Below are positions 26,501 to 52,652 of a stretch of DNA of 64,000 nucleotides, in pieces. Position 1 is the stretch's first letter. Every line of letters begins with the position of its first letter. The stretch is from Thermoplasmata archaeon (GTDB lineage: Archaea > Thermoplasmatota > Thermoplasmata > GCA-020350865), in the NCBI GenBank assembly GCA_020348445.1, contig CP070751.1:3755189-3819188 (forward strand), written 5' to 3'. A model generated the notes under the pieces. It made no database searches. It saw only the letters and a program-made list of their open reading frames with translations, and was not told the DNA's origin. The translations under genes and the position numbers were made by a program.

Positions 26501-26523
26501 GCTCCCACCTTATCATTGCTCAT
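23506..26523 (-). CDS. hdrA: Heterodisulfide reductase subunit A-like flavoprotein, two-module long form (1005 aa)
   Basis: Module 1 has GGGISGMQSSLDLA (FAD GxGxxG), FPTNDCAMC, two CxxCxxCxxxCP ferredoxin motifs and CVGSRD..YCSSVCC. Module 2 has the HdrA N-domain Cys signature (VFICHCGINIGG, ASCTPRTHEPLF, IRDQCSWVH), a second GGGLSG FAD motif and C-terminal ferredoxin motifs. Confidence 0.9.
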   Translation of the reverse strand: MSNDKVGAVLVVGGGISGMQSSLDLADAGFKVYLIDKLPSIGGVMSQLDKTFPTNDCAMCIMAPKLVGTGRHHNIEVISNTEIESIEGEAGNFNVNLVRRPRRINEEKCTGCGVCGAKCPVEAIDEYNWGLTRRGATFIRYPQSVPLKFMIDKEKCIGCGICQEECKAEAVEYDQEEQKFDLNVGSIVLSPGYSMFDPSLKTEYGYGRYKNVVSSMEFERFLSATGPFAGTVMRPSDGDIPEKVAFLQCVGSRDSQAGSEYCSSVCCMFAMKEAIIAQEHSEGLKSHIFFMDLRAFGKEFDDYYTRAQEEHKIKFTRCRVAEVREVPETNNLIIKYVEDGEVKEEEFNMVVLSTGFRPPENVKEFAETLGIDLNKYDFCSTGVFSPLETSREGVYVSGVFNGPKDIPDTVAQASGAAAKASSIISSERGKMITPKEYPPERDVLGEDPRIGVFICHCGINIGGVVNVPDVVEYAKTLPNVEHAEHNLYTCSEDTQKGIKEKIVEHNLNRVIVASCTPRTHEPLFRSTTKEGGLNPYLFEMANIRDQCSWVHMHDADNATKKAKDLVRMAVAKSRLLEPLYKLELNVFQSGLVIGGGLSGMTAALEMAKQGFEVHLVEREKELGGNLRNIYHVLSEKGEDPQKMLKEIIEKVKNDDKIKLHLETTVKSIEGFMGSFTTELSDDTKIEHGVVIVATGGQEYKPTEYLYREDSRVLTQMDLEGKLAKDEIKPNSVVMIQCVGSRIEERPYCSRICCADAIKNALKIKEKNPDAQIIVLYKDIRSYGFREDYYREAADKGVRFIRYDDENKPEVTKEGDDLVVSINDPILGEHIKIKPEYVVLSAATLPQPDNEELAKMLKIPLSKDKFFLEAHMKLRPVDFATEGVFLCGLAHSPKFIDESISQACGAVSRACTILSDEIMELEPTISEIIDENCDGCAYCIDPCPFNALTLIEYMRNGNVKKTVERNEAACKGCGVCMATCPKRGVMVKGFTLDQISAMIGAALEVV

Positions 26524-27311
26524 GCTTTCACCTCCGGTACAATGGAGATGTATTTGGGTGTAAATCCTTCGATTGAGTCCAGTGCAAGCTGATTTCTCTT
26601 TCTAAGAAAGACCACATGATCCAGAATTCTGTCTGTAGGAAGATCAATCTCAGAGGCGAGCTCCTTTACTGACATTGGTTTTTCGGTAATTAGGCCAAGT
26701 AGTCTCTTCCTTTCAAACTCGGCCTCGATGGCGTCCTCCATAAACTCGTCCCACTCCTCCTGACTCTTGGTTTCATTATATACATTACCCTGTTCCACTA
26801 TCTTTCTCTCTTTTGAAACAATGGCTCTGAGTCTGAAATCCAGTGCTGCGAGCTTGGCCGCATTTATATTGGCCATTAGTTTCTCATCCGGTTTCTCTCC
26901 AGATAACGGGCTCGGCCCCAATTCCTGAATTTGCTTGGGAAATTCTCTCATGAGTATAGCAAATCTTTCACCTTCTGATGCTGCAACCCATTCCATTCTG
27001 AGCCTTTCAGGCTCCAATCCAGCTTTCTTAACAAGCTGTCTCGTCATCTTTATCTTTCTTTCAGCCTGGTAGTTGCCCTCAAGGTAATGGCAGTCTCCAG
27101 GGTGGCATCCACCTATAAACACACCATCCACACCCTGGGTAAAGGCTTCGAGGACGATATAGGGATCGATTCTTCCTGAACACATGACTCTGATGATCCT
27201 GATGTTTGGAGGATACTGGAATCTGGAAACACCTGCCAAATCGGCTCCTGCATATGAACACCAGTTGCATAAGAAGCCAACAATTTTCGGTTCAAATTCA
27301 GTCTCAGCCAT
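26520..27311 (-). CDS. mvhD: MvhD-type [2Fe-2S] protein with C-terminal winged-helix-like extension (263 aa)
   Basis: N-terminal MvhD core (FEPKIVGFLCNWCSYAGADLAG..GCHPGDCHY). The C-terminal ~70 aa is SVKELASEIDLPTDRILDHVVFLRKRNQLALDSIEGFTPKY, a helix-turn-helix plus wing pattern. Confidence 0.8.
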   Translation of the reverse strand: MAETEFEPKIVGFLCNWCSYAGADLAGVSRFQYPPNIRIIRVMCSGRIDPYIVLEAFTQGVDGVFIGGCHPGDCHYLEGNYQAERKIKMTRQLVKKAGLEPERLRMEWVAASEGERFAILMREFPKQIQELGPSPLSGEKPDEKLMANINAAKLAALDFRLRAIVSKERKIVEQGNVYNETKSQEEWDEFMEDAIEAEFERKRLLGLITEKPMSVKELASEIDLPTDRILDHVVFLRKRNQLALDSIEGFTPKYISIVPEVKA

Positions 27312-30300
27312 CTAGTTCACCTCCTTTACAGCAGCAACAACCTGTGCAATAAGTTGCTCGTCAGTGAACTGTTTAATAGAGGCTGCCTTCTCGGGACAAC
27401 TTGCAGCGCATGTCCCACAGCCTTTGCAGAGCACTTCGGTTACCCTTGCTATACCATTTTCATCTTTTTCGATTGCATTGAAGGGACATATGACCACGCA
27501 CGTTCCGCATCCTGAACATATATCTTCATCTATACTGGAAACCATTCCTTCAGCTTCCAAGGTTTTCTTGGAAAGTATTGTTGCGGCTCTGGAAACAGCT
27601 GCACTTGCCTGGGATACACATTCCTCAAAGAATTTCGGTGAATGGGCAAGCCCGCATAGGAATATACCCTCTGTTGCAAATTCAACTGGACGAAGTTTCA
27701 TGTGGGCTTCCAAGAAGAATTTATGTTTGGAAAGGGGCACCTTCAACATCTGTGCCAAATCAGCATTATCTGGGTGAGGGATAGTGGCTGCACTCAAAAC
27801 TAAAACGTCGGGTTTGATTGTTATTTCCTCTCCTAAAAAGGGCTCCCAGATCTTCACCTCCAATCCCTTCTTATCAGCAACCTTTGGCTTGGTTTCGTCA
27901 TCGTATCTTATGAACTTGACTCCATTTTTTGCAGCCTCCTCGTAGAATACCTCGCTGAATCCATATGTTCTTATATCCTTGAATAAGACATAAACACTCG
28001 TTGCTGGATTCATTTCCTTGACCTTCAAGGCGTTCTTCACGGCCTCGGTGCAGCATACCCTGCTGCAATATGGTCTCTCATCATTTCTGCAGCCAACGCA
28101 TTGAATCATCACAACTGTGTCTGCATCCATCTTCTTCTTTGCCAGCTTTCCTTCAAATTCCAGTTGAGTCATTACGTTGTCGTTCTCCCCGTAAAGGTAC
28201 TCTTTTGGTTTGTGCTCCATCCCTCCCGTGGCAACTATCACTATACCATGCTCGATTTCCTTTTCTTCGCCATTTTGGTCGATTGTTGTCTTGAAGTTTC
28301 CGATGTAACCAGATATATCCTTTACTGTGCTGTTTGTAAACACATGAATCTTCTTATCTGAATTTACGTTTTTAATCAATTCCTTCAGTTTTTTCTGGAC
28401 ATCCTTTTTTTCACCCACCATTTCATAGTGGACCCTCTTCATGAGGCCTCCAAGTTCGTTTTCTCTTTCCACAATGAACGCCTCGAAACCTTGTTTTGAA
28501 AGCTCCTGTGCCGCTGTGATACCAGAAAGACCACCGCCTATAACAAGACCTGATGGTTTGACTTCAATTGGGACCCTTGTGAGAGGTTCTAATAATCCTG
28601 CCTTTGCCACCACCATTCGAACCAGGTCTTTTGCCTTCTGTGTGGCTTTTGCAGGTTCATGCATGTGAACCCATGAGCATTGGTCACGAATATTTGCCAT
28701 CTCGAATAAATAAGGATTCAGGCCCGCTTCTGCACACGTATTTTGGAATAAGGGTTGATGGGTTCTTGGAGTACAGGAAGCCACAATAACCCTGTTTAGA
28801 TTGTTCTCTTCAATTTTCTCTCGTATTTTTTTCTGGGTATCCTGTGAACATGTATACAAATTGTTCTCTGCATAAGCAACATTCGGTAGGGTCTTTGCAT
28901 ATTCCACGACACCAGGCACATCCACAACCCCGCCTATGTTGATTCCGCAGTGGCATATGAAGACACCTATGCGCGGCTCCTCACCACTTACTTCTTTTTC
29001 AGGGGGGTATTCCTTTACTGTAACCAGTTTCCCCCTCTCGGAAGCGATGACAGAAGATGCTTTAGCCGCAGCACCACTAGCCTCTGATACACTATCGGGA
29101 ATGTCCTTTGGAGCCCCGAATGCTCCACCCACAAATATACCAGGTTTGGAGGTTTCCAGTGGTGAGAACAGAATGTCTGTTGAGCAAAAATCATATGGAT
29201 TTAATTGTACCCCAAGTTTTTCTGAAAGGTCCTTTGCATCCTTTGGTGCCGTCATGCCAACGGCAAGGGCAACCATATCGAAGACCTCCGAGACAAGGTT
29301 ACCCTTGTCTATAAAGGTCACCAGCAGATTATTTGTGATAGGATCCTCTGCAATGGATGATATTCTATTGTTTTTAACAAATCTAATGCCGTGTTCTTTT
29401 TCTGCCCTCACATAATAATCGTCGAACTCCTTTCCAAAGGCTCTCATATCCATGAAGAATATGGTGGCTTCCAAACCTGGATTATGCTCTTGAGCAATAA
29501 CAGCCTCCTTTATCGCGAACATACAGCATACTGAAGAACAGTAGGGATTACCTATGCTTCTATCCCTGGAACCAACACATTGAACGAAGGCTATCTTCTT
29601 TACCACTTCACCGTCTGAGGGTCTTAATACTAATCCGCCAAACGGACCCGTTGCAGAAAGCATTCTCTCAAGTTCAAGGCTTGATACAACGTTTGGAAAT
29701 CGACCATAACCGTATTCTTTTCTTTTTTGAACTAAATCGAACTCGTCAAAACCAGGGGAAAGAATGATTGATCCCACTTCCAATACCTTTGTTTCGGGCT
29801 CCTGGCTGTAAACTATGGCCCCGGCTTTGCAAAGTCTCTCACAGTTACCGCAACCAATGCAGTAATCCTTGTCTATTGAAAAAATCAGTGGTACGGCTTG
29901 GGGGTATTTGACAAATATGGCTTTGCGGACTTTTAATCCTTTATTGTATTCGTCCACCACCTCCACAGGGCATTTTTGTGTACAAATGCCGCACCCTGTA
30001 CATTTGCTTTCATCTATGAATCTCGACTTTTTGGAAACAGTGACCTTGAAATTTCCTGCTTTTCCCTCGATTTTGTCGATGGTTGAATTGGTAATCAAAT
30101 CTATGTTCCTATGTCGTCCAGTTTCCACCAATTTTGGGGCCATTATACACATTGCACAGTCATTTGTTGGGAATGTTTTGTCAAGCTGGGCCATGGCTCC
30201 ACCAATACTAGGACTCTTGTCCACAAGATAGACTCGATATCCTGAATCCGCCAGATCCAATGAGGACTGCATCCCTGCAATACCGCCTCCGACGACCATA

Positions 30301-30323
30301 ACTGCTCCAACAGAGTCTGTCAT
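27312..30323 (-). CDS. hdrA: HdrA-like flavoprotein, two-module long form (1003 aa)
   Basis: Same motif set as 23506..26523; roughly 55% identity estimated by eye. Confidence 0.9.
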   Translation of the reverse strand: MTDSVGAVMVVGGGIAGMQSSLDLADSGYRVYLVDKSPSIGGAMAQLDKTFPTNDCAMCIMAPKLVETGRHRNIDLITNSTIDKIEGKAGNFKVTVSKKSRFIDESKCTGCGICTQKCPVEVVDEYNKGLKVRKAIFVKYPQAVPLIFSIDKDYCIGCGNCERLCKAGAIVYSQEPETKVLEVGSIILSPGFDEFDLVQKRKEYGYGRFPNVVSSLELERMLSATGPFGGLVLRPSDGEVVKKIAFVQCVGSRDRSIGNPYCSSVCCMFAIKEAVIAQEHNPGLEATIFFMDMRAFGKEFDDYYVRAEKEHGIRFVKNNRISSIAEDPITNNLLVTFIDKGNLVSEVFDMVALAVGMTAPKDAKDLSEKLGVQLNPYDFCSTDILFSPLETSKPGIFVGGAFGAPKDIPDSVSEASGAAAKASSVIASERGKLVTVKEYPPEKEVSGEEPRIGVFICHCGINIGGVVDVPGVVEYAKTLPNVAYAENNLYTCSQDTQKKIREKIEENNLNRVIVASCTPRTHQPLFQNTCAEAGLNPYLFEMANIRDQCSWVHMHEPAKATQKAKDLVRMVVAKAGLLEPLTRVPIEVKPSGLVIGGGLSGITAAQELSKQGFEAFIVERENELGGLMKRVHYEMVGEKKDVQKKLKELIKNVNSDKKIHVFTNSTVKDISGYIGNFKTTIDQNGEEKEIEHGIVIVATGGMEHKPKEYLYGENDNVMTQLEFEGKLAKKKMDADTVVMIQCVGCRNDERPYCSRVCCTEAVKNALKVKEMNPATSVYVLFKDIRTYGFSEVFYEEAAKNGVKFIRYDDETKPKVADKKGLEVKIWEPFLGEEITIKPDVLVLSAATIPHPDNADLAQMLKVPLSKHKFFLEAHMKLRPVEFATEGIFLCGLAHSPKFFEECVSQASAAVSRAATILSKKTLEAEGMVSSIDEDICSGCGTCVVICPFNAIEKDENGIARVTEVLCKGCGTCAASCPEKAASIKQFTDEQLIAQVVAAVKEVN

Positions 30324-31105
30324 GCCTCCACCTCCTGGGTTTGAGCTAGGTACATTGGTGTTGTACCTTCGATACCCTCTAGTCTAATCAGATTCCTGTC
30401 CCTCAATGTAACGATATGTTTAAGAATGTCCCTTGAAGGGACTTTCATCTTATCAGCAAGCCCTTTGACAGATTGTGGTTTGTCTTTAGCTAGAAGAAGG
30501 ATTCTTGTACGTACGAGCTCTTCATCGATTGCATTTTCCATCAACTCATCTATCCTTTCCTGGGGTATTTTTTCATCATAGACGTTTTCCTTTTCAACCA
30601 GAGCAAGCTCTTTGCCAACAAGTGTTCTTAACCTGAAATCTTCTACAGCGTTTCTTGCGGCATAAAGGGATTCCATGATTAGCAAATTGGGTTTCTCTCC
30701 AGCTACTGGATTTGGTCCCAAGGATCTGACCTGTTCTGTGAAATCCCTCATGGTCTTGGCAAATCTCTCACCTTCGGAGGCGGCTATCCATTCAAGGCTT
30801 AATCTCTCTGGTTCGAGACCGGACTTTGCAAGGACCTTCTTCAGCATTTTCACTCTCCTCTCAGTATGATAATTCCCCTCCATGTAATGGCAATCACCTG
30901 GGTGACATCCGCCAATGAGCACCCCGTCAGCACCTTGGATGAACATCTCGATAACAAACAGGGGATCAACCCTACCGGAGCACATCACCCTCACGATTCT
31001 GATATTGGGTGGATACTGAAATCTGCTAACACCTGCCAAATCTGCTCCTGCGTAACTACACCAATTGCACAAGAAACCAACAATCTTCGGTTCAAATGCC
31101 TTCAT
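30320..31105 (-). CDS. mvhD: MvhD-type protein with C-terminal wHTH-like extension (261 aa)
   Basis: MvhD core plus C-terminal SVKGLADKMKVPSRDILKHIVTLRDRNLIRLEGIEGTTPMY. Confidence 0.8.
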   Translation of the reverse strand: MKAFEPKIVGFLCNWCSYAGADLAGVSRFQYPPNIRIVRVMCSGRVDPLFVIEMFIQGADGVLIGGCHPGDCHYMEGNYHTERRVKMLKKVLAKSGLEPERLSLEWIAASEGERFAKTMRDFTEQVRSLGPNPVAGEKPNLLIMESLYAARNAVEDFRLRTLVGKELALVEKENVYDEKIPQERIDELMENAIDEELVRTRILLLAKDKPQSVKGLADKMKVPSRDILKHIVTLRDRNLIRLEGIEGTTPMYLAQTQEVEA

Positions 31106-31128: not shown

Positions 31129-31413
31129 TCACTCATCCTCCACTCCCGACATCAATCCTCTTACACAAACTGAGAAATTACATGAATCTGATCTTGCCCT
31201 CTCACAGTAATGACATCTTAAAGTCAGAAGCACTTCTCTTACGATCCATTCCTTTGTCTCGTCATCAACATCTGGAAGGTTCTTTTTAATCTCCATAATA
31301 CTTTTACTCTGTACATCCTTCCATTTTGGTTGTGTTGATAGGTGCATTCTCTTTTTCCATGCATTCCTCATCTCTTCGATCTTCTTTTGTTCTTCTTCGT
31401 TTAATTCACTCAA
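31129..31413 (-). CDS. Conserved small Cys4 protein (uncharacterised family; 4 paralogs in window)
   Basis: C-terminal block VLLTLRCHYCERARSDSCNFSVCVRGLMSG (CxxCx7Cx4C). Preceded by LPD(V/I)D(D/E)ETK. The stop overlaps the hdrA start. Confidence 0.6.
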   Translation of the reverse strand: MSELNEEEQKKIEEMRNAWKKRMHLSTQPKWKDVQSKSIMEIKKNLPDVDDETKEWIVREVLLTLRCHYCERARSDSCNFSVCVRGLMSGVEDE

Positions 31414-34400
31414 GTTGATCCCTCCTTTAGGGCAGCAATGGCCTGAGAGAGAAGTTGAATGTCGGTGAAATGTGCAATATCTATGGCCTTCTCAGGGCAT
31501 GCTGCGCCACAAGTCCCGCATCCCTTGCATAGAACCTCGGCTACCTTTGCCTTCAATTCTTCCATATCAACTCTAATTGCACCATATGGACATACCATCT
31601 CGCAGGTTCCACACCCTGTACATTTATCCTCGTTAACTGAAGATACAGTGCCTTCCACAAAGAGTTTTTCCTTGGATAGGATGGTGGCTGCTCTTGATAC
31701 TGCTGCACTTGATTGAGCAACACATTCCTCGAAGAATTTTGGTGAATGAGCAAGACCACAAAGGAATATACCTTCTGTTGCAAATTCTACTGGGCGAAGT
31801 TTCATATGTGCTTCCAAAAAGAATTTGTGCTTGCTGAGGGGGACCTTCAATATCTGTGCCAAATCTGTATTATCCGTGTGAGGGATCGTTGCTGCACTCA
31901 GAATTAATAGGTCTGGTCGAAGCACCAGGTCCTCGTTAAGGAATTGCTCTTTGATCTTTACCTCAATTCCTTTTTTATCGCTTACCTTGGGCTTTGTTTC
32001 ATCATCGTATCTAATGAACTTTATACCCTTTCTCGCTGCTTCCTCATAAAATATCTCGCTGAATCCATAGGTTCTGATGTCCTTGAATAGAACATATATG
32101 TTTGCATCTGGTTTTAATTCCTTTATGTTCAAGGCGTTTTTCACCGCCTCGGTACAGCAAACCCTGCTGCAATAAGGTCTCTCTGGCGTTCTGGAACCTA
32201 CACATTGAATCATCACTATCGTGTTTGCATCGATTTTTTGCTCTTTAGCCATTTTTTCTTCCAGCTCGAGCTGAGTTAGAACGTTTTCGTTTTTACCATA
32301 GAGGTATTCAGAGGGCTTGTACTCCTCCCCTCCAGTAGAGACTATGACGATTCCATGTTCGATTTCCTTATCTTCACCGTTATGATCTATTATTGTTTTG
32401 AAGTTGCCAATATATCCGGATACATCTTTTACAGTGCTATTTGTGAATACATGGATTCTTTCATCAGAATCGATGTTCATGACGATTTCTTTCAATTTCT
32501 TTTGTATGTCTTTTTGCTCGCCCATTAATTCGTGATGTATTCTCTTCATGAGTCCTCCAAGCTCATTCTCTCTCTCAACGATAAAGGCTTCATAACCTTG
32601 TTTGGATAGTTCCAAGGCTGAATTCATACCGCTTATCCCACCACCTATGACCAAGGCAGATGGTTTTACTTCAATGGGAACCTTTGGCAATGGTGAATTC
32701 AATCTTGCCTTGGTTACAGCCATTCTAACTAAATCCTTTGCTTTCTCTGTAGCGGCATCAGGTTCTCGCATATGAACCCATGAGCACTGATCACGAATAT
32801 TAGCCATCTCGAAAAGATACGGATTTAATCCTGCTTCTGCCACCGTATTTTGGAACAATGGTTGATGGGTCCTTGGGGTGCAAGAAGCCACTATCACCCT
32901 ATTCAGCCCATGCTCCTCGATTTTTTCTTTTATCTTTTGTTGAGTATCCTGTGAGCAGGTGTAAAGGTTATTCTCAGCATATGCTACGTTCGGCATAGTT
33001 TTTGCATACTCAACCACATCGGGTACATCCACTACACCGCCGATGTTGATGCCACAATGACAAACAAAAACGCCTATACGAGGTTCCTCCTCACCTATCT
33101 CTCTCTCAGGCGGGTACTCCTTTACAGTTACCAATTTCCCCCGCTCAGAGGAAATAACTGACGATGCTTTTGCTGCCGCGCCACTTGCCTCTGATACACT
33201 GTCGGGAATGTCCTTTGGTGCCCCAAATGCCCCACCAACAAATATTCCTGGGCGTGAGGTCTCTAACGGGGAAAATAAAATATCTGTTGAGCAAAAATTA
33301 TATTCATTCAAATCTACATTAAGCTTCTCGCTGAGGTTCTTTGCATCTTTAGGTGCCGTCATCCCAACTGCAAGTGTTACGAGGTCGAACTCTTCTGTGA
33401 CAAGTTCCCCCTCTTCGATATAGTTTATAATCAAATTATTGGTATTTGGATTTTCAGCGATTGCGGATATCCTATTGTTCTTTACGAACCTTATACCGTG
33501 CTCTTTCTCAGCTCTGATATAATAATCATCGAACTCCTTACCAAAGGCTCGCATGTCCATGAAGAATATAGTGGCTTCCAACCCAGGGTTATGTTCCTGA
33601 GCTATCACCGCCTCTTTTATTGCGAACATACAGCATACAGAGGAGCAGTATGGATTGCCAATTGATCTATCGCGGGAACCAACGCACTGGATGAACGCCA
33701 TCTTCTTTGAGACCTTTCCGTCAGAAGGTCTTAGAACCAGTCCCCCATAAGGACCTGTTGCGCTCAACATGCGCTCTAGCTCAAGACTTGATACCACATT
33801 CAGATATTTTCCATAACCGTACTCTTTGCGTTTTTTGGTGAGGTCGAACTCATCGAAGCCTGGCGTGACGATAATAGAGCCCACCTCCAGTTGCATTTTT
33901 TCCTCGGTTTGATCATACGCAATGGCCCCTGCTCCACAAACCTCGGAGCAGACGCCGCATCCGATACATATATCCTTATCGATAGCATACACTGACGGCA
34001 CAGCTTGGGGATACCTAACAAAAATTGCTTTTCTAAGTTTGAATCCTTTATTGTACTCATCTGGCACCTCAACGGGGCATCTTTGGGTACATATTCCACA
34101 ACCCGTACATTTTGTCTCATCCACTCGTCGAGAGTGTTTTGATATAGTGACCGTAAAATGCCCTGCATCACCCACAACCTCTTCCATATCTGCGTTGGTT
34201 ATCAACTTAATATTTTGATGTCTTCCCGTCTCTACCAATTTTGGAGCCATTATACACATGGCACAATCGTTGGTAGGGAAAGTTTTATCCAATTGGGACA
34301 TAGCCCCTCCGATGGTTGGTGATTTTTCCAATAAATATACTTTAAATCCTGAATCCGCTAGATCAAGAGATGATTGCATGCCGGAAATTCCTCCTCCGAT

Positions 34401-34433
34401 GACCAAGACCGCACCAACTTTGTCGTTGCTCAT
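31410..34433 (-). CDS. hdrA: HdrA-like flavoprotein, two-module long form (1007 aa)
   Basis: Same motif architecture. Closest paralog of 27312..30323. Confidence 0.9.
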   Translation of the reverse strand: MSNDKVGAVLVIGGGISGMQSSLDLADSGFKVYLLEKSPTIGGAMSQLDKTFPTNDCAMCIMAPKLVETGRHQNIKLITNADMEEVVGDAGHFTVTISKHSRRVDETKCTGCGICTQRCPVEVPDEYNKGFKLRKAIFVRYPQAVPSVYAIDKDICIGCGVCSEVCGAGAIAYDQTEEKMQLEVGSIIVTPGFDEFDLTKKRKEYGYGKYLNVVSSLELERMLSATGPYGGLVLRPSDGKVSKKMAFIQCVGSRDRSIGNPYCSSVCCMFAIKEAVIAQEHNPGLEATIFFMDMRAFGKEFDDYYIRAEKEHGIRFVKNNRISAIAENPNTNNLIINYIEEGELVTEEFDLVTLAVGMTAPKDAKNLSEKLNVDLNEYNFCSTDILFSPLETSRPGIFVGGAFGAPKDIPDSVSEASGAAAKASSVISSERGKLVTVKEYPPEREIGEEEPRIGVFVCHCGINIGGVVDVPDVVEYAKTMPNVAYAENNLYTCSQDTQQKIKEKIEEHGLNRVIVASCTPRTHQPLFQNTVAEAGLNPYLFEMANIRDQCSWVHMREPDAATEKAKDLVRMAVTKARLNSPLPKVPIEVKPSALVIGGGISGMNSALELSKQGYEAFIVERENELGGLMKRIHHELMGEQKDIQKKLKEIVMNIDSDERIHVFTNSTVKDVSGYIGNFKTIIDHNGEDKEIEHGIVIVSTGGEEYKPSEYLYGKNENVLTQLELEEKMAKEQKIDANTIVMIQCVGSRTPERPYCSRVCCTEAVKNALNIKELKPDANIYVLFKDIRTYGFSEIFYEEAARKGIKFIRYDDETKPKVSDKKGIEVKIKEQFLNEDLVLRPDLLILSAATIPHTDNTDLAQILKVPLSKHKFFLEAHMKLRPVEFATEGIFLCGLAHSPKFFEECVAQSSAAVSRAATILSKEKLFVEGTVSSVNEDKCTGCGTCEMVCPYGAIRVDMEELKAKVAEVLCKGCGTCGAACPEKAIDIAHFTDIQLLSQAIAALKEGST

Positions 34434-34741
34434 TAATAAATCCCCCCTATTTCTCTTCCTGACATAAGTCCTCGGATACAGATTGAGAAGTTACATTGAT
34501 CTGTTCTTGCCCGCTCGCAACTATGGCATCTTAAAGTTAACAAAAGTTCTCGGGTTATCTTTTTCTTTGTTTCCTCGTCGATGTCTGGGAGACTTGTTTT
34601 ACAAAGTTGTATGATCTTATTTTGTGTTTGTCCCCAACTTGGTATGGTGGATATACGGCTTTTGTAATCCCATCTGCTTCTTATTTCATCAACAGTTTTC
34701 TTATCCTTTTTGCTCAATTCGCTTTTAGTGTTCTTGGTCAC
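34433..34741 (-). CDS. Conserved small Cys4 protein (paralog)
   Basis: ..LPDIDEETKKKITRELLLTLRCHSCERARTDQCNFSICIRGLMSG. Overlaps the mvhD stop upstream and the hdrA start downstream. Confidence 0.6.
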   Translation of the reverse strand: MTKNTKSELSKKDKKTVDEIRSRWDYKSRISTIPSWGQTQNKIIQLCKTSLPDIDEETKKKITRELLLTLRCHSCERARTDQCNFSICIRGLMSGREIGGIY

Positions 34742-35523
34742 TTTATCCCCTCCTCTACTGCTAAATATAAAGGAGTATCATTGTCAATCCTGTCAAGCAT
34801 CACCAGACCTCGGTCCCTTAACGTCACAATATGTTGTAATACTCGATTGGGGGGAAGTTCTAGGCGCTGAGCCAGTTCATCTACTGATAACGCTTCATCC
34901 CTAACTTCAAAAATAATACTACATCTATCTAATTCATAATTGATGGCGGCGTCAAGTACGGTGTCTATTTCCTCCTGAGGAACTTTCTCATTGTATACAT
35001 TTCCTTCCATAACCAAATCCAATTCTCTTGAAACAAGTAACTTCAATCTAAAGTCCTTCACAGCATTTTTTGCTGCAAATAATGCCTTAAGAATATCAAC
35101 GTTAGGTGTTGTTCCGCTAACGGGTGATGGCCCAATTTCTTTTATTTGCTTTGTGAATTCTCGGATAGTTTCTGCAAATCGTTCGCCTTCGGAAGCAGAA
35201 ATCCATTCTAGTCTGAGTCGCTCCTCTTCAAACCCTATCCTCTTCAATAATTTCTTTGTCAGTTTTACCCTCTTTTCAGCAAAATAATTACCTGTTTGAT
35301 AATGGCAATCTCCAAAATGACATCCACCAACAAGGATCCCATCTGCACCTTGGATGAACATTTCCAAGATAAGAGATGGTTCGACCCTACCACTACACAT
35401 TACCCTTACTATCCTAAGATTTGCAGGATATTGATATCTGCTCACACCTGCCAGATCAGCACCTGCATATGAGCACCAGTTGCATAAAAATCCCAGAATT
35501 TTAGGTTCGAATTTTGTTGCCAT
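34738..35523 (-). CDS. mvhD: MvhD-type protein with C-terminal wHTH-like extension (261 aa)
   Basis: MvhD core plus C-terminal SVDELAQRLELPPNRVLQHIVTLRDRGLVMLDRIDNDTPLY. Confidence 0.8.
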   Translation of the reverse strand: MATKFEPKILGFLCNWCSYAGADLAGVSRYQYPANLRIVRVMCSGRVEPSLILEMFIQGADGILVGGCHFGDCHYQTGNYFAEKRVKLTKKLLKRIGFEEERLRLEWISASEGERFAETIREFTKQIKEIGPSPVSGTTPNVDILKALFAAKNAVKDFRLKLLVSRELDLVMEGNVYNEKVPQEEIDTVLDAAINYELDRCSIIFEVRDEALSVDELAQRLELPPNRVLQHIVTLRDRGLVMLDRIDNDTPLYLAVEEGIK

Positions 35524-41543: not shown

Positions 41544-42850
41544 CAGCTCACCCCCTTTGTCGAAAGGAGCTCTGCCGCCCTTGCCGCAGCTCCAGATGCC
41601 TGGGCAACTGCCTCGGGTATATCCATGGGCTCATGACAGTATCCTGCAATGAAGATGCCGGGACGTTTGGTATCCACGGGATTGAGCAACTTATCAGCTG
41701 ATTCGTAGAAGCCGAACTCATCCACATCAATATCAAGGAGCTTGGCCAGTTCTTTTGCACCCTTACGGGGCACAAGTGTAGTGGCAAGAATAACCATGTC
41801 TACCTCCATTTTCTCCTGTTTGCCAGCAACATCGTAAACAACTATTGGATTTTGGTTGGCAGGATTTTCCTGCACTGTGGCATCTGAATTGATGTAGGTG
41901 ATTCCATATTCGCTTTTTCCTCGCTCCATATATTCATTGAAACCTTTTCCAAATGTCCTCATATCTTTGTAGAAAATGAATGATTCCATATCATCGTGAT
42001 GTTCCCTTGCCAAAATCGCCTCCTTGGTTGAATGCATGCAGCATACACTGCAGCAGTACGGATGATCCAGCTGGGGATTTCTTGAGCCAACGCATTGTAT
42101 AAATCCTATCTTCTTTGGCCTTTCCCCGTCTGAACGTCTTTGGATATGACCTCCCGTGGGACCTGCAGCATTTATCATACGCTCGAATTCCATGGCAGTG
42201 AAGACGTTCTGAACCTTTTTATAACCATATTCCTTGGCTGGGGTCGGGTCCCATACATCGTAGCCTGTGGCAACGATTATTGATCCAACATTAAGCTTCA
42301 ATTCCTCAGGACCCTTGTCGAATTCTATTGCACCAATTTTACACGCCTTCTCGCAGAGCCTGCACTTTCCTTTTGTATAAAAAATGCAGTTCTCTTCGTC
42401 GATGGTCATGACCCTGGGCACTGCTTGAAGAAAGGGAAGGTAAATCGCTTTTCGCATCCCAAGTTCCATATCAAATTCGTTGGGGACCTTAACTGGACAT
42501 TTGGCATTACAATCACCGCATCCAGTGCAGACATCTTCGTTCACATGTCTGGCTTTTCTTGTTACCGTTGCATTATAGTTACCCGCATCCCCGGCAATTT
42601 CAGAGACCTCTGAGTAGGTCATTACATTTATGTTATCATGGCCAAAACAATCCGCCATTTTCGGGGCTAAGATACAAATGGAGCAGTCATTTGTGGGGAA
42701 GGTCTTATCCAATTGTGCCATTCTTCCCCCGATAGAGGGTTCCCTCTCAACAAGATAGACCTGCATACCTTTATCAGCCAAATCCAAGGATGCCTGGATT
42801 CCTGCGATGCCTCCACCAATTACTAAGACATTTTTCTTTTCCATTTTCAT
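41543..42850 (-). CDS. HdrA-like N-module flavoprotein (435 aa; stand-alone counterpart of module 1 of the long HdrA forms)
   Basis: VLVIGGGIAGIQASLDLA, FPTNDCSIC, CTGCGDCNAKCP, CRLCEKACK, CVGSRN..YCCSVCC. Aligns with residues ~1-440 of the long HdrA paralogs. Its start overlaps the stop of 39639..41543. Confidence 0.85.
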   Translation of the reverse strand: MKMEKKNVLVIGGGIAGIQASLDLADKGMQVYLVEREPSIGGRMAQLDKTFPTNDCSICILAPKMADCFGHDNINVMTYSEVSEIAGDAGNYNATVTRKARHVNEDVCTGCGDCNAKCPVKVPNEFDMELGMRKAIYLPFLQAVPRVMTIDEENCIFYTKGKCRLCEKACKIGAIEFDKGPEELKLNVGSIIVATGYDVWDPTPAKEYGYKKVQNVFTAMEFERMINAAGPTGGHIQRRSDGERPKKIGFIQCVGSRNPQLDHPYCCSVCCMHSTKEAILAREHHDDMESFIFYKDMRTFGKGFNEYMERGKSEYGITYINSDATVQENPANQNPIVVYDVAGKQEKMEVDMVILATTLVPRKGAKELAKLLDIDVDEFGFYESADKLLNPVDTKRPGIFIAGYCHEPMDIPEAVAQASGAAARAAELLSTKGVS

Positions 42851-43049
42851 GCCCCCTTAAGGATCGAACATGATTACATATTACCTTCCCTTTATACACT
42901 GTACATAGGGGAGGAGGGAATTGCTCTTTTATGATATATATTTTATGACGATATATAACACTTTTTAGATGGTATTCGCCGAAATACCACTGGTATTTTT
43001 CCATATCTCGTCATGGATATCTGCGGTATATTTTTCAATAGTTATGGTA

Positions 43050-46874: not shown

Positions 46875-48020
46875 TTACTTTATTCTTTCTATTATAGCCG
46901 ATATCAGATCACCAACAGGAATATCCACTTTCTCCTTCTCAACAGGTATCTCCTTCCATGTGGCACAAGTGAAGTGAATCACACATTTAGGACAAGTTGT
47001 AATGAGCTTATCGGCCCCTGTATTTTTCGCCTCCATTAACCGATCTATCTGCATTATCTTAGAGAGGGATTCACAGGTTGCAAAGGCATTTACTCCGCAG
47101 CATGCACTGTTCTCCTTTATGTTCTCCATTTCAATCAATTCAAATCCCGCAGCTTCAATGAGTTCCCTGGGGCTGTCGTAGATCTCCAAATGCCTTCCAA
47201 GTCTGCACGGGTCATGGTATGTAACTTTCTCATTTCCATCGCTTTTAAATTCCAGTTTCCCGTCATCCACCAAATCCATTAGATAATCTGTGATGTAAAC
47301 CAGCTCAAAATCCAGATCACCTGCAATATCCTGATAATCGAAATCAAATGTTCTCATCCCTTCTGGGCAGGAAAAAACCACGGTCTTTGCACCAGCTTCC
47401 TTTATTGCCTTGATATTGAGATTCATTAATTTGTCAAAATTATCTTCATCCCCTGTCCAATTGAGATCGTGACCGCAGCATACCTCGTTTTTGCTCATTG
47501 CTGGTGTGATACCGGCTTTGTTCAACACCCTTACATTGTTTTTAGCAATATCAAGGATACCGGCCTTCCTTTCCTCGAAAATCTTATCTAGATGAGCCTG
47601 GCAGCCAGAGAAATAGTACACATCACCCTTTTCTGCAACCTTTAAATCATCGGTAACCCAGCTTAACCTGTTCTGTGGTAACTGGTGAGATTGGATTCTG
47701 GCAATTGTCTGCATCAATCCTCCCTGGGAGCACGTGGGCTCAAATCCGTCTAAAACAGATTCACTTCTAAGTCCTCTGATGAACTCGGTGTAATCCACTT
47801 TGTAAGGACACATCTGACTGCACATGGCACATGTAGTACAGCGCCATATGTCCATGTTCTGGGCAAGGCCCCCCTCCACACCCTCCAATGCCTTAACCAC
47901 TATCAGTCTTGGAGCAAAGTTCTGGTCCAGTTTGGCAACGGGACATACAGTCGTGCATTTACCGCATTCAACACAATCATATGCTCCTGTGTCATCGATG
48001 AGATCATCTATTGCGGACAT
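46875..48020 (-). CDS. HdrD-like / fused HdrC-HdrB-type iron-sulfur protein with CCG domains (GlcF-like)
   Basis: N-terminal 2x[4Fe-4S] (CVECGKCTTVCP, CTTCAMCSQMCP) followed by two cysteine-rich CCG-type segments (EVCCGHDLNW, SACCGVNAF). Confidence 0.75.
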   Translation of the reverse strand: MSAIDDLIDDTGAYDCVECGKCTTVCPVAKLDQNFAPRLIVVKALEGVEGGLAQNMDIWRCTTCAMCSQMCPYKVDYTEFIRGLRSESVLDGFEPTCSQGGLMQTIARIQSHQLPQNRLSWVTDDLKVAEKGDVYYFSGCQAHLDKIFEERKAGILDIAKNNVRVLNKAGITPAMSKNEVCCGHDLNWTGDEDNFDKLMNLNIKAIKEAGAKTVVFSCPEGMRTFDFDYQDIAGDLDFELVYITDYLMDLVDDGKLEFKSDGNEKVTYHDPCRLGRHLEIYDSPRELIEAAGFELIEMENIKENSACCGVNAFATCESLSKIMQIDRLMEAKNTGADKLITTCPKCVIHFTCATWKEIPVEKEKVDIPVGDLISAIIERIK

Positions 48021-51000
48021 TCGATTTCCTCCTTCTGAGGTTTAATGGATTGTTCTATCGGATTCAATGGATTGGGCCCGAGCTCTTTGACCTTGTTTAC
48101 GAACTCTGTCATGACCTCTGCAAATCTTTTTCCTTCGGATGCAGAGATCCATTCTAATCGAACACGCCTTTCATCCATACCCAACAATCCTATAAGTTCT
48201 TTTACGTTTTTGACCCTAATTTCCGCCTTCTCATTTCCTGATATATAATGGCAGTCGCCGATATGACAGCCTGCAACCAGTATACCATCCACTCCTTTAT
48301 GAAGTGCTTCCATAATAAATGATGGGGAGATTCTTCCCGAGCACATCACCCTTATCACCCTGATATTTGGCGGGTACTGAAATCTGGAAACACCTGCCAA
48401 ATCAGCCCCGGCATAGGCACACCAATTGCAGCAGAATGCTAGTATGAAGGGTTCAAATTCCTCCCTCAATTTATGCCCTTCAAGTGCAGAGTCTATCATG
48501 GTATGAATCTGATCATTTTTGAAATGCTTTGTAATGATGGCGTTATTGCAGCAACTTGCAGCACATGCTCCGCAGCCCTTGCATAAAGCCTCATTGATTT
48601 TCGAATGCTTTTTCCCTTCATCATCTGTAATGAGCTCGGGGGCGCCGAACTCACAGATATCGACGCATTCTCCACATCCTCGACATTTTGACTCGTCAAC
48701 AACAGAGATTACAGCATTTGCTTCAAAGAATTTTTTAGAAAGCAAAGTTGCAGCCCTTGATACCGTCCCCTTAGCCTGTGAAATACATTCCTCCAAGAAT
48801 TTTGGTGAATGCGCAAGCCCGCACAAAAAGACCCCCTCGGTTGCGAAATCCAAAGGACGTAATTTCATATGAGCCTCCAGGAAAAATCCATCCTTGGAGA
48901 GGGGAACCTTAAGCATCTTGGCGATTTTTTCATTGTCGACACTGGGTATTGTGGCTGTGCTTAGAACCAAAAGATCTGGATTGATATCGATATTTTCACC
49001 TAGAAAATGATCGAAAATTGATACAGAAAGCTCACCACCTGCAAGCTGAACATCGGGCTTTGAATCGTCATAGTACCTGATGAATATTATACCTGATCTT
49101 GCAGCCTCTTCATAGAAGATCTCGCGAAAGCCGTATGTTCTCATGTCCTTGTATAGGATGTATATATTTGCTTCGGGATTCAATTCCTTCAACTTCAAAG
49201 CATTTTTCACGGCCTCTGAGCAGCAGACCCTGCTGCAATATGTCCGTGTCTCATCCCTGCTTCCCACACACTGAATCATAACTACTGTCTTTGCATCCAC
49301 TTGGCCTTTTCCTAATCTCTCTTCAAAATCCAGTTGGGTGATGATCCTCTCATCCTGGCCGTATAGGTACTCTTTAGGCTCGTAACTGATGCCGCCGGTA
49401 GCAACGATAACGGCTCCATGTTCCAATGTCTTCTCCTCGCCGTTTTCAGAAATAGTGGTTTTAAAATCTCCCACACAACCCTCGATATTCTTGATTTCAG
49501 AATTTACATACACATTTATCTTATCATTGGAATTGATCTTGTCTATGGTTTCCTTTAAAAATTCCTGAAGATTTTCTCCGGTGAGCATATAATGCAGCCG
49601 CTTGAGATTTCCTCCAAGTTCCTTCTCTTTTTCAACGATATGAGCAGCAAATCCATGCTCAGCCAATTCCAAGACAGCCATCATACCCGATATTCCACCG
49701 CCTATGACAAGGGCCGATTGATTTATGGGAATTTCCACTTTATACAATGGTTCAAGCAATCTCGTTTTTGAAATGGCCATTCTCACAAGGTCCTTAGCCT
49801 TCCTTGTTGCAGCCTCTGGCTCGTGCATGTGAACCCATGAGCACTGATCGCGGATATTAGCCATTTCAAAGAAGTATGGATTCAACCCCGCCTCTCTTAC
49901 AGTATTCTGAAAAAGCGGTTCATGGGTTCGGGGTGTACAGCTGGCCACGACAACGCGGTTGAGATTATGCTCCTCTATTTTTGATTTGATTTTTTGCTGC
50001 GTGTCCTGTGAACATGTGTAGGGGTTACTCTCTGCATAAACAACATTAGGTAGGTTTTTAACGTACTCCACAACCTCTGGAACCTTAACTACACCACCTA
50101 TGTTGATTCCGCAGTGGCAAATGAATACTCCCAAACGGGGCTCCTCCTGGGCTACCTCTTTTTCAGGTGGATACTCCTTTACTTCAACAAGTTTGTCCCT
50201 CTCGGACGCAATCAAGGACGAAGCACATGCAGCAGCACCGCTTGCTTGGGCCACAGTATCTGGAATATCCTTTGGAGCCGAAAATGCCCCTGAGACGAAA
50301 ACCCCTTTCCTGTTTGTCTCAAGAGGTGAAGTAACACTTGTTTCGCAAAAGTTGTAATCATTTAACTCAACACCCAATTTCTCGGCGAGCTCCAAGGCAG
50401 TATCTGGTGAGTCCATGCCAACAGAAAGAACAACCAGATCGAACTCTTCTTCCTTTAACTCCCCCTCGTCAACATAATTCAATATTAAATTGTTGGTGTT
50501 TTTATCCTCTTTTACTCCCGAGACCCTGTTGTTCTTCACAAACCCGATTCCATGCTCCTCTTCTGCTCTAATGTAATAATCATCAAATTCCTTGCCAAAT
50601 GCCCGCATGTCCATAAAGAATATGGTTGATTTTAACCCAGGTGCATGCTCCTGTGCTATTACAGCCTCCTTGATTGCGAACATGCAACATACAGATGAGC
50701 AATATGGATTTCCAGACGTCCTATCTCTGGAACCAACACATTGAATAAATGCAACTTTTTTTGGAATCTCGCCGTCAGAGGGTCGCAGAACCAATCCATT
50801 GAAGGGTCCTGTGGCACTGAGCATGCGCTCCATTTCCAAACTTGAGATCACATTTGGGAATTTTCCATAACCATATTCCTTGCGTTTTGATAGAATGTCA
50901 AATTCCTTAAATCCAGGTGACATGATGATGGAGCCAACTTGTATATTGATCTCCTTTTTTTCCTGGGAATATTTTATGGCCTCTGCCTCACACTGGGTCT

Positions 51001-51433
51001 CGCAGAGCCCGCAGCCAATGCATATCTCCTGGTCAATACAATGAACAGGTGGAACAGCTTGAGGATACTTTACATGGATGGCTTTTCTTCTCTTTAGGCC
51101 CTTGTTGTACTCGTCCTTTACTTCAATGGGGCATCTTTGTGTACAAATACCGCATCCCGTACAACGACTTTCATCCACATATCTCGGCCTCTTGGTGAGG
51201 GTGACCTTGAAATTTCCTGCTCCTCCTTCTACATTCTCCAAATCTGCATTTGTGATGAGCTGGATATTGTGATGGCGTCCAGTCTCCACAAGTTTGGGAG
51301 CCATGATGCACATTGCACAATCATTTGTAGGGAAGGTCTTATCAAGCTGGGACATTGCCCCACCGATGCTGGGGCTGTTATCGAGGACATAGACTTTGAA
51401 TCCTGAATCTGCCAGATCCAGTGCAGACTGCAT
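48008..51433 (-). CDS. hdrA: HdrA (two-module long form) fused C-terminally to an MvhD domain (1141 aa as called); N-terminus lacks a canonical start
   Basis: Full HdrA motif set, then a C-terminal FEPFILAFCCNWCAYAGADLAG..GCHIGDCHY MvhD domain. The called ATG (MQSALDLA) falls after the GGGISG FAD motif. The in-frame upstream stretch KKVGAILIIGGGISG contains no ATG/GTG/TTG before the stop at 51572. Confidence 0.8.
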   Translation of the reverse strand: MQSALDLADSGFKVYVLDNSPSIGGAMSQLDKTFPTNDCAMCIMAPKLVETGRHHNIQLITNADLENVEGGAGNFKVTLTKRPRYVDESRCTGCGICTQRCPIEVKDEYNKGLKRRKAIHVKYPQAVPPVHCIDQEICIGCGLCETQCEAEAIKYSQEKKEINIQVGSIIMSPGFKEFDILSKRKEYGYGKFPNVISSLEMERMLSATGPFNGLVLRPSDGEIPKKVAFIQCVGSRDRTSGNPYCSSVCCMFAIKEAVIAQEHAPGLKSTIFFMDMRAFGKEFDDYYIRAEEEHGIGFVKNNRVSGVKEDKNTNNLILNYVDEGELKEEEFDLVVLSVGMDSPDTALELAEKLGVELNDYNFCETSVTSPLETNRKGVFVSGAFSAPKDIPDTVAQASGAAACASSLIASERDKLVEVKEYPPEKEVAQEEPRLGVFICHCGINIGGVVKVPEVVEYVKNLPNVVYAESNPYTCSQDTQQKIKSKIEEHNLNRVVVASCTPRTHEPLFQNTVREAGLNPYFFEMANIRDQCSWVHMHEPEAATRKAKDLVRMAISKTRLLEPLYKVEIPINQSALVIGGGISGMMAVLELAEHGFAAHIVEKEKELGGNLKRLHYMLTGENLQEFLKETIDKINSNDKINVYVNSEIKNIEGCVGDFKTTISENGEEKTLEHGAVIVATGGISYEPKEYLYGQDERIITQLDFEERLGKGQVDAKTVVMIQCVGSRDETRTYCSRVCCSEAVKNALKLKELNPEANIYILYKDMRTYGFREIFYEEAARSGIIFIRYYDDSKPDVQLAGGELSVSIFDHFLGENIDINPDLLVLSTATIPSVDNEKIAKMLKVPLSKDGFFLEAHMKLRPLDFATEGVFLCGLAHSPKFLEECISQAKGTVSRAATLLSKKFFEANAVISVVDESKCRGCGECVDICEFGAPELITDDEGKKHSKINEALCKGCGACAASCCNNAIITKHFKNDQIHTMIDSALEGHKLREEFEPFILAFCCNWCAYAGADLAGVSRFQYPPNIRVIRVMCSGRISPSFIMEALHKGVDGILVAGCHIGDCHYISGNEKAEIRVKNVKELIGLLGMDERRVRLEWISASEGKRFAEVMTEFVNKVKELGPNPLNPIEQSIKPQKEEIECPQ

Positions 51434-51537
51434 GCCTGAGATTCCGCCACCTATTATGAGAATCGCGCCTACCTTTTTTGATTCAGCTTCCTTAATGACT
51501 GAAGCAGCTTCTACCTCGACCTGTCCATCCTTTGCCT

Positions 51538-51861
51538 CTATCCCACCACCCCCTTCCCTGAAAGCAATCCTCTAATGCACACCGAGAAATGACAGGCATC
51601 GCTTCTTGCCCTCTCGCAGCTGTGGCATCTTAACGTGAGAAGTAATTCTCTTGTGATTTTCTTTCTTGTCTCTTCATCTATATCGGGGAGGTTTTCCTTG
51701 CAATCCTGAATGATCTTATTTTGAACCTGAGCCCAGGCGGGTAAGGTGGAGACCTTGTATTTTTTTCTCCAAGAGTTGCGAATATTTTTGATCTTGTCCA
51801 ACTCTTCTTCTTTTATTTCCTTGTCACCATTATTAATTTCCATTTTTGTTCCCCTATTCAA
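51538..51861 (-). CDS. Conserved small Cys4 protein (paralog)
   Basis: ..LPDIDEETRKKITRELLLTLRCHSCERARSDACHFSVCIRGLLSG. Confidence 0.6.
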   Translation of the reverse strand: MNRGTKMEINNGDKEIKEEELDKIKNIRNSWRKKYKVSTLPAWAQVQNKIIQDCKENLPDIDEETRKKITRELLLTLRCHSCERARSDACHFSVCIRGLLSGKGVVG

Positions 51862-52652
51862 TCACTTTGGACATAGTTATATATTGGAGATGAGCCTTCG
51901 ATTTTCTCCAGGCCCACCAATCCCCTGTCCCGAAGTACCACCAGGTGTTCTAGGACCTCTCTTGAGGGGGTTTTAATGTCCTGGGCTATATCTTTGACTG
52001 ACCTGGACTTTTTCATAAGTGACCTCAGAATTCTTTGTCTGAGCATCTCCTCCTCAATAATTTCATCCAGTATCCCATCAAATCGTTCATCTTCGATTTT
52101 GTTGTTGTAGACATTCCCCTTTTCAATTATGTTGTATGCTTTTGCGCAAAGTAATCTCAACCTGAAATCGTTGGCTGCATCCCTTGCTATTAACAATTGC
52201 TCCATAATTTTCAGGTCAGGGGATTTGCCCGAGATCGGGCTTGGCCCAAGTTCCTTAATTTTGTTGGTCATGTCCTTCATTATTTCGGCAAATCTAACAG
52301 ATTCTGATGCAGAGACCCATTCCAATCTTAGCCTCTCTGGGTTCAACCCTACCCTTTGAAGCAGACTCTTGGTCATTTCTATCCTATACACTGTATGATA
52401 ATTACCCTCCATGTAGTGACAGTCCCCGGGATGGCACCCGCCAATAAATACTCCATCAATACCCTGTATGAACATCTCCAGTATTATGGAAGGCTCGATT
52501 CTGGAACTGCACATGACCCTAACGATTCTGATATTATGGGGGTACTGTATCCTGCTCACACCTGCCAAATCGGCTCCGGCATAACAGCACCAATTACAAA
52601 GGTAGCCTATTATCTTTGGATCGAACTCATCCAATGCCCCATCCCCATTCAC
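51858..52652 (-). CDS. mvhD: MvhD-type protein with C-terminal wHTH-like extension (264 aa)
   Basis: MvhD core (FDPKIIGYLCNWCCYAGADLAG..GCHPGDCHY) plus C-terminal SVKDIAQDIKTPSREVLEHLVVLRDRGLVGLEKIEGSSPIY. Confidence 0.8.
   Translation of the reverse strand: MNGDGALDEFDPKIIGYLCNWCCYAGADLAGVSRIQYPHNIRIVRVMCSSRIEPSIILEMFIQGIDGVFIGGCHPGDCHYMEGNYHTVYRIEMTKSLLQRVGLNPERLRLEWVSASESVRFAEIMKDMTNKIKELGPSPISGKSPDLKIMEQLLIARDAANDFRLRLLCAKAYNIIEKGNVYNNKIEDERFDGILDEIIEEEMLRQRILRSLMKKSRSVKDIAQDIKTPSREVLEHLVVLRDRGLVGLEKIEGSSPIYNYVQSD

Follow-up and report, generated by a model that had tools for sequence, protein, structure and literature searches.

Long MvhD proteins with a C-terminal winged helix between double-length HdrA genes of a Thermoplasmata archaeon: candidate adaptors between redox modules

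Genes of the locus and layout of the long MvhD proteins

The window, i.e., the whole stretch of 64,000 nucleotides analysed here (contig CP070751.1 of a Thermoplasmata archaeon, positions 3,755,189 to 3,819,188 of the forward strand), contains a large cluster of genes for double-length HdrA proteins interspersed with genes for MvhD proteins. Five of the latter, all on the minus strand, encode long MvhD proteins of 261-268 residues (La to Le in Table 1), which an earlier note made from the DNA letters alone had singled out for an additional C-terminal domain and which are considered here as candidate docking adaptors between redox modules. As that note had counted, the MvhD domains of the window number eight, since the five long forms are accompanied by two short ones (23059-23505 and 44310-44888) and by one at the C-terminus of a fusion with HdrA (48008-51433).

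The five long MvhD proteins share 50-61% identity and are alignable over their entire length. In all five, residues ~10-135 form a complete FlpD/MvhD domain (Pfam PF02662, profile positions 1-123 of 123, E 1e-52 to 1e-56) that scores 175-190 bits against a cut-off of 22.3 bits, and the MvhD chains of the PDB are matched at E 1e-58 to 1e-64. Five cysteines are invariant in the five copies within the motifs CNWC, MCS, GGCH, and GDCH; specifically, C15, C18, C44, C69, and C74 (numbering of Le, 26520-27311) align with chain 5ODC_D and are predicted to comprise the ligands of the [2Fe-2S] cluster and the redox-active cysteine beside it.

Alignment to the short forms places ~125 residues beyond the canonical MvhD domain, so that the ~70 residues first estimated underrate the extension while fitting its conserved C-terminal part of ~68 residues. 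The extension consists of a ~55-residue helical linker with invariant DFRL and NVY motifs, followed by a ~68-residue winged helix-turn-helix (wHTH) domain, in which the consensus motif drawn up beforehand agrees with the invariant residues S214, V215, A219, L230, H232, V234, L236, R239, P252, and Y254, with slight deviations in single copies. This conservation is not a matter of chance because, in an exhaustive search of 1.84 billion proteins, a hidden Markov model (HMM) built only on the extension matches 325 representative clusters at E<=1e-3, of which 143 reach E<=1e-10.

Every gene from 56002 down to 23059 lies on the minus strand, in two runs separated by a 200-nucleotide gap. With A for a double-length HdrA of ~1000 residues, L for a long MvhD, M for a short MvhD, and s for a cysteine-rich open reading frame (ORF) of ~100 residues, run 1 reads A(1117 residues)-L-s-A(1141 residues, M fused)-HdrBC-like-HdrA(596 residues)-M-FrhB-like and run 2 reads A(split, 435+634 residues)-L-s-A-L-s-A-s-L-A-L-A-M. 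The A proteins of the window span 1003-1141 residues and comprise two HdrA-like halves (Pfam, NCBIfam). They fall into two classes: the first of a run is 45-50% identical to the rest, and those preceded by a long MvhD are 60-79% identical to each other.

Table 1. Features of the window, in descending order of position (aa, amino acids; an empty cell means that nothing was recorded)
Feature	Position	Strand	Details
Double HdrA, first of run 1, upstream of La	52649..56002	-	1117 aa; two FAD/TrxR-like regions and Fer4; NCBIfam HdrA2 in two stretches
La, long MvhD	51858..52652	-	264 aa; extension 51861-52235; PF02662 E 9.5e-53
Small Cys-rich ORF	51538..51861	-	107 aa
Double HdrA fused to short MvhD, downstream of La	48008..51433	-	1141 aa; FlpD at residues 997-1119; without extension
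HdrBC/HdrD-like CCG protein, run 1 tail	46875-48020	-	Pfam, NCBIfam
Single HdrA-like, run 1 tail	45055-46845	-	Pfam, NCBIfam
Short MvhD, run 1 tail	44310-44888	-	192-aa ORF; domain at residues 62-184
FrhB-like, run 1 tail	43050-44177	-	Pfam, NCBIfam
Split double HdrA, first of run 2, upstream of Lb	39639..42850	-	435 aa (41543-42850) + 634 aa (39639-41543); Pfam, tblastn map
Lb, long MvhD	38836..39642	-	268 aa; extension 38839-39222; PF02662 E 5.7e-52
Paralogues of the small Cys-rich ORF	38534-38839, 34433-34741, 31129-31413	-	between long MvhD and double HdrA genes
Double HdrA between Lb and Lc	35523..38588	-	1021 aa
Lc, long MvhD	34738..35523	-	261 aa; extension 34741-35121; copy used for structure modelling
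Double HdrA between Lc and Ld	31410..34433	-	1007 aa
Ld, long MvhD	30320..31105	-	261 aa; extension 30323-30706; PF02662 E 2.1e-56
Double HdrA between Ld and Le	27312..30323	-	1003 aa
Le, long MvhD	26520..27311	-	263 aa; extension 26523-26906; PF02662 E 6.1e-55
Double HdrA, last of run 2, downstream of Le	23506..26523	-	1005 aa
Short canonical MvhD ending run 2	23059..23505	-	148 aa; PF02662 E 9.6e-55; without extension; best NCBIfam VhuD
Two FKBP-type isomerase genes between hydrogenase and terminal short MvhD	21777-22202, 22465-22929
[NiFe]-hydrogenase large subunit, VhuA-like	20284-21729	+	NCBIfam VhuA E 1.1e-136, below equivalog cut-off
[NiFe]-hydrogenase small subunit, VhuG-like	19202-20278	+	NCBIfam VhuG E 9.5e-64, below equivalog cut-off
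Hydrogenase maturation protease	18592-19107
HypE	17163-18227
HypD	12318-13430

The Mvh/Vhu-type hydrogenase encoded at 19202-21729 is the likely partner of the short MvhD that ends run 2. As for the gene calls, the two ORFs of the split HdrA overlap by one base, and both the HdrA split and the HdrA-MvhD fusion recur in the related loci L002, L010, L018, L019, and L029. The ORF of the short MvhD in the tail of run 1 begins with a low-complexity stretch of ~55 residues that is absent from its 148-residue orthologue in L002, and its true start is probably an internal codon. Two further ORFs, 8175-11282 (plus strand, 1035 residues) and 14650-16260 (minus strand, 536 residues), have no NCBIfam match at E<=1e-10.

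The C-terminal winged helix and its kinship with ArsR regulators

The C-terminal ~68 residues are a wHTH domain of the ArsR/MarR type; the fold had been proposed in the earlier note and is borne out by sequence matches, by structure matches, and by the AlphaFold2 (AF2) model of full-length Lc (predicted template modelling score, pTM, 0.85). Specifically, the domain resembles HlyU and Phr in sequence (E~2e-5 over ~65 residues), and its best structural matches are mostly DNA-binding regulators. With the ArsR/SmtB family (HlyU, SmtB, CzrA, NolR, Phr), it shares the wHTH topology and the "xxVLxHLxxLRxxGLV" helix. Pfam HTH_5 scores 24.8 bits in La (cut-off 22) and 21.4-21.7 bits in two other copies, Lb has weak HTH_5/HTH_20 matches, and NCBIfam HTH_metalloreg, whose cut-off is 55 bits, gives 13-28 bits; the ArsR cut-offs are missed by four of the five copies in Pfam and by all of them in NCBIfam.

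This kinship invites the reading of long MvhD as a redox-sensing transcription factor, in which the [2Fe-2S] MvhD domain would sense the redox state and the wHTH would bind an operator of the hdrA/mvhD cluster. Regulators that join an Fe-S sensor to a wHTH exist as a class, the Rrf2 family being an example, and ArsR/SmtB regulators dimerise via helices alpha1 and alpha5. The extension lacks the alpha5 dimerisation helix that ArsR/SmtB dimers need: no helix follows the wing in the Lc model, where the chain ends six residues past the second wing strand (E250-255 of 261), and across the family a median of two residues follows the extension, which is almost always C-terminal. Metal-site residues of the ArsR/SmtB kind were not identified in it. 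Moreover, unlike ArsR/SmtB proteins, the domain sits behind an Fe-S subunit and inside enzyme operons and fusions.

The surface of the domain is variable and often acidic. Among 178 non-redundant extensions, the best-conserved columns are those of the hydrophobic core, the RLR and GNVY motifs, and the proline and tyrosine of the wing; the would-be recognition helix is poorly conserved at its exposed positions, and 69% of the members have Asp or Glu at the wing tip. With a mean of +0.3 (sd 3) over the 178 members, the wHTH is on average close to neutral in net charge; the values for the window copies are -1, +3, -6, -4, and +2, three copies being acidic and two basic (isoelectric points 9.2 and 9.6). 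The basic pair fits DNA binding and the acidic majority does not, and net charge was set aside as a discriminator, being weakly informative with window copies that span -6 to +3. The intergenic regions 55990-56290 and 42840-43060 have no operator-like inverted repeat in common, and only AT-rich chance palindromes were seen in them. Lastly, a regulator would hardly be expected as five paralogues in one cluster, each at a fixed place between HdrA genes, or within oxidoreductase fusions of 800-1700 residues, and the equivalent wHTH of BamF, a long MvhD of a benzoyl-CoA reductase described below, binds a protein. A DNA-binding role is therefore improbable in spite of the ArsR-like sequence and structure matches. 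Of the two functions that the earlier note had offered, the redox-sensing regulator is disfavoured by the number of paralogues, the missing alpha5, the surface, and the lack of a common operator repeat, whereas the scaffold domain for HdrA partners agrees with the fixed gene order, the way the extension covaries with the downstream HdrA, its presence in oxidoreductase fusions, and the precedent of BamF.

Gene order, distribution, and covariation of the extension

Segments of HdrA, MvhD, extension, small ORF, HdrBC-like, and FrhB-like proteins were mapped by tblastn on the window and on 28 non-redundant related loci, a long MvhD being counted only with at least 600 nucleotides of downstream sequence. 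For 40 of 40 long MvhD genes, what comes next is the N-terminus of a double HdrA, with at most the small ORF in between. A double HdrA follows a short MvhD in 1 of 26 cases, and that HdrA lies beyond a gap and opens the next operon. All runs, in the window as in the related loci, end with A-M.

A recurrent core of HdrBC-like, A, L, A' (the HdrA after L), and M, followed by Fer4_22 and FNR-like NAD-binding (Flx-like) genes, is found in Desulfobacterota, Lokiarchaeota, and WOR-3/Cloacimonadota. In the Thermoplasmata version, the L-A' unit occurs up to fourfold, and a nearby Mvh-type hydrogenase takes the place of the Flx-like genes. The deltaproteobacterial loci were considered as true bam operons and rejected, as they have no AOR or NuoEFG-like genes and contain a second double HdrA, a short MvhD, and Flx-like genes instead.

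True exceptions to the rule that L follows an HdrA are two Bathyarchaeia loci (L008 and L009), in which a GltD/NfnB-like flavoprotein gene lies directly upstream of the first L and GcvH-like genes precede it. This neighbourhood mirrors a protein of 1737 residues in which the extension stands between MvhD and a GltD/NfnB-like flavoprotein module. The stretches concerned (L008:3079-5716 and L009:356-2767) hold one or two GcvH-like genes of the lipoyl-carrier type, reminiscent of the lipoate-binding proteins of sulfur-oxidising Hdr-like systems, and the GltD/NfnB-like protein has a C-terminal 2x[4Fe-4S] part. A third candidate exception, L018, was rejected; its gene start is duplicated, and an HdrA C-terminus is visible upstream. 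There (L018:9433-9660, contig CP070739.1, a Methanomassiliicoccales chromosome from a metagenome-assembled genome, MAG), the first ~50 nucleotides of the long MvhD occur twice, ~170 nucleotides apart, and long ORFs are lacking upstream; the duplication is a probable assembly artefact of the public MAG.

Long MvhD is widespread. A word-indexed search with the extension-only profile gave 29 clusters, and a broader extension profile matched 310 clusters at E<=1e-5. In the full-length search, 120 of 120 among the matches listed are ~255-261 residues long with the whole query covered. Carriers include MAGs of Thermoplasmata/Methanomassiliicoccales (80-90% identical), Bathyarchaeia, Lokiarchaeota, Helarchaeota, Cloacimonadota/WOR-3, and many Desulfobacterota; no named Geobacter protein was among the matches listed in two profile searches and one full-length search. 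The Thermoplasmata/Methanomassiliicoccales carriers probably belong to the lineage of the window itself. Besides the 1737-residue protein, the extension also occurs in HdrA-MvhD-extension and polyferredoxin (Fer4)-MvhD-extension fusions, within oxidoreductases of 800-1700 residues. Some members (P0043, P0129, P0145, P0168) are without the MvhD cysteine motifs (e.g., CNWC is replaced) and keep the linker and the wHTH, which suggests that they may be purely structural variants of the adaptor.

Many public gene calls for long MvhD are truncated. Archaeal homologues (L001:8105-8887, L002:9884-10657, L004:9875-10663) are called ~40 residues short, as proteins of ~220 residues starting at MCSGR. A selenocysteine or in-frame stop was rejected as the cause, and these calls are start-codon artefacts because the upstream frame continues through CNWC; they look like cases of non-ATG or unrecognised start codons. 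An in-frame TGA, which probably encodes selenocysteine, is found in bacterial relatives only; it stands at a conserved cysteine position, that of GG[U]H in Desulfobacterota and that of CxW[U] in Cloacimonadota. The genes concerned (L021:9539-10297, L022:9596-10354, L015:8563-9327, L017:594-1430) are split or truncated in public calls, with fragments of 165-167 residues. The pattern of the genome scan required NVY[ND], so NVYG variants would be missed.

Covariation was assessed with Mantel tests on 21 complete A-L-A units, phylogenetically related to one another, from five lineages. Distances of the extension follow those of the downstream HdrA with r 0.94, or with partial r 0.81 (p 0.0002) once the upstream HdrA is controlled for, and hardly those of the upstream one when the downstream is controlled for (partial r 0.13, p 0.09), whereas the MvhD domain carries independent signals on both sides (partial r 0.46 upstream, 0.73 downstream). 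Within the window, where the Spearman values rest on ten non-independent pairs from five paralogous units, MvhD-domain identity follows the upstream HdrA (0.77) more than the downstream one (0.35), and the extension follows the downstream HdrA (0.64; linker alone 0.74) more than the upstream one (0.41).

Since both parts of long MvhD, domain and extension, covary with the downstream HdrA, as would also fit L and A' acting as one unit, the extension might instead be an intra-module brace that folds onto its own MvhD or HdrA and stabilises or tunes the [2Fe-2S] environment. The pTM of the Lc model suggests that extension and MvhD domain are fairly fixed relative to each other, and the most conserved motifs, RLR and GNVY, lie in the linker and not on the wHTH surface. 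A brace would, however, leave unexplained why the last HdrA of each run, which belongs to the same class as the others preceded by L, carries a short MvhD and why the extension stands between MvhD and the GltD-like module in fusions, and the wHTH of BamF touches another module; this explanation is accordingly held to be unlikely.

A different partner for the wHTH could be the ~100-residue cysteine-rich protein, or another non-HdrA protein such as a ferredoxin. The window has four such ORFs in between its long MvhD and HdrA genes; they are 50-57% identical and share the invariant C-terminal motif RCH.CERAR.D.C.FS.C.RGL, with four cysteines and a histidine, and they have no match in Pfam, NCBIfam, or the PDB. 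Among the mapped loci, the ORF is present in all those of Thermoplasmata and confined to them. As a general partner of the wHTH, it was rejected because it is missing from the clusters of Bathyarchaeia, Lokiarchaeota, Cloacimonadota/WOR-3, and Desulfobacterota with the same extension and beside Le in the window, and docking of this kind is very improbable, more so than DNA binding. The small protein may be a metal-binding accessory subunit.

The reading preferred here, at a probability of roughly 60%, is that long MvhD serves as an inter-module docking adaptor in chains of HdrA-type bifurcating modules. The N-terminal MvhD domain would carry the [2Fe-2S] cluster and bind an HdrA module in the canonical way, while the ~125-residue extension, made up of the linker and a winged helix of ArsR descent co-opted as an arm for protein docking, would hold a second redox module. 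In the window, this second module would be the double-length, BamE-like HdrA encoded immediately downstream, an assignment made with less confidence than docking in general. Run 1 would then form the chain A-L-A(MvhD fused)-HdrBC-like and run 2 the chain A-(L-A')x4-M, in which the last HdrA carries a short MvhD that probably links to the neighbouring Mvh-type [NiFe] hydrogenase; electrons would pass between the modules. A much bolder proposal, that long MvhD daisy-chains up to five double-HdrA modules of this genome into a serial, hydrogenase-fed super-complex, is considered doubtful. Flavin-based electron bifurcation or confurcation would then run as a cascade of several stages in which the repurposed wHTH is the universal connector, and the principle of the class II benzoyl-CoA reductase would hold for a widespread enzyme system, as yet uncharacterised, in Thermoplasmata, Bathyarchaeia, Asgard archaea, Cloacimonadota, and Desulfobacterota.

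Several points weigh against the adaptor. In sequence, the wHTH is still clearly similar to ArsR proteins that do bind DNA, and its region is basic in two of the five copies, so a small probability of DNA binding remains. The covariation could come from tandem co-duplication of L and A' with no physical interaction needed, and because such co-duplication could contribute, it is taken as support for contact and not as proof. The additional GltD-like module of Bathyarchaeia lies upstream of L instead of downstream, and different systems may therefore have different partners. Finally, the support for a contact of the wHTH with a second module in the window is indirect, consisting of gene order and of covariation with the downstream HdrA.

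The multicopy double-length HdrA of anaerobic methanotrophic archaea (ANME), Asgard, TACK, and sulfate-reducer genomes has long been noted and left unexplained. Should wHTH-bearing MvhD proteins connect such modules with each other or with NAD(P)H and H2 input modules, internal junctions would be recognisable by a long MvhD and terminal input adaptors by a short one, a rule from which the composition and order of large bifurcating assemblies in uncultured organisms could be predicted. The domain would also be a clean example of a DNA-binding fold reused for protein docking, and a caution against annotating long MvhD as ArsR-type regulators, as some pipelines do; in automatic annotation by JGI, some members go under the name "hydrogenase delta subunit/DNA-binding ArsR family regulator".

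Comparison with known systems

The closest counterpart is BamF of the class II benzoyl-CoA reductase of Geobacter metallireducens, an MvhD more than 100 residues longer than usual and provided with a wHTH, which docks BamI according to a 2026 preprint based on cryo-electron microscopy (bioRxiv 10.64898/2026.04.10.717634). The complex is Bam[(BC)2DEFGHI]2, BamE is a fused HdrA dimer, selenocysteine 19 of BamF is placed in a CxWU motif, and BamI is part of a second electron-input module, BamGHI, whose genes (Gmet_2079-2081) neighbour that of BamF (bioRxiv 10.64898/2026.04.10.717634). The likeness drawn here rests on the description in the preprint, gene order, and partner type, not on the sequence or structure of BamF. 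Like BamF, the long MvhD proteins of the window combine an MvhD [2Fe-2S] domain with an extension of more than 100 residues that includes a wHTH; BamE corresponds to the double HdrA of the window and the CCG protein BamD to the HdrBC/HdrD-like protein 46875-48020, and the order B-A-L (HdrBC-like, A, L) of the relatives parallels bamD-bamE-bamF. The pairing of BamF with BamE is the same as that of long MvhD with the ~1000-residue HdrA. The selenocysteine of the Cloacimonadota relatives falls at the same motif position as that of BamF, whereas the window copies have cysteine (CNWC). In the Bam system, the module that follows is BamGHI (HydBC-like), whereas here it is another double HdrA; no BamGHI-like or AOR-like genes (the latter corresponding to BamBC) were found in the window by Pfam and NCBIfam domain scans, and the L-A' unit is tandemly repeated up to four times. 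The "two Rossmann-fold domains" that the preprint gives for BamF may not correspond to the linker of two helices in the Lc model.

Canonical MvhD/VhuD proteins (5ODC, 7BKB, 8RVU, 9SW2) are 55-61% identical to the long forms over the N-terminal 135 residues, with all cysteine motifs conserved, and the N-terminus of long MvhD superposes on their chains with template modelling scores of 0.82-0.87 (normalised to the target). All solved MvhD chains have 129-141 residues and are without the extension, and canonical MvhD joins a single-length HdrA dimer to a hydrogenase, a formate dehydrogenase, or Elp. FlxD of the FlxABCD-HdrABC system of Desulfovibrio is an MvhD-like subunit that serves as the adaptor by which HdrA is joined to an NAD(P)H module; the clusters of the relatives end with Fer4_22 and FNR-like NAD-binding genes resembling FlxBC/A, and the FlxD-like role appears to fall there to the short terminal MvhD and not to the long one.

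Clusters of type II or fused HdrA, with several double-length HdrA per genome, have been described in ANME and other archaea in papers that make no reference to long MvhD proteins or to wHTH domains (PMC9012536, PMC12054007, PMC11237513). In the literature searched, only the BamF preprint links MvhD to a winged helix, and it puts out of date the assertion in the earlier note that the architecture is undescribed, since the long MvhD adaptor described in it binds a partner subunit through a wHTH. New with respect to the literature searched are the use of such a protein between double HdrA modules, the gene-order rule that separates long from short MvhD, and the tandem arrays of the L-A' unit.

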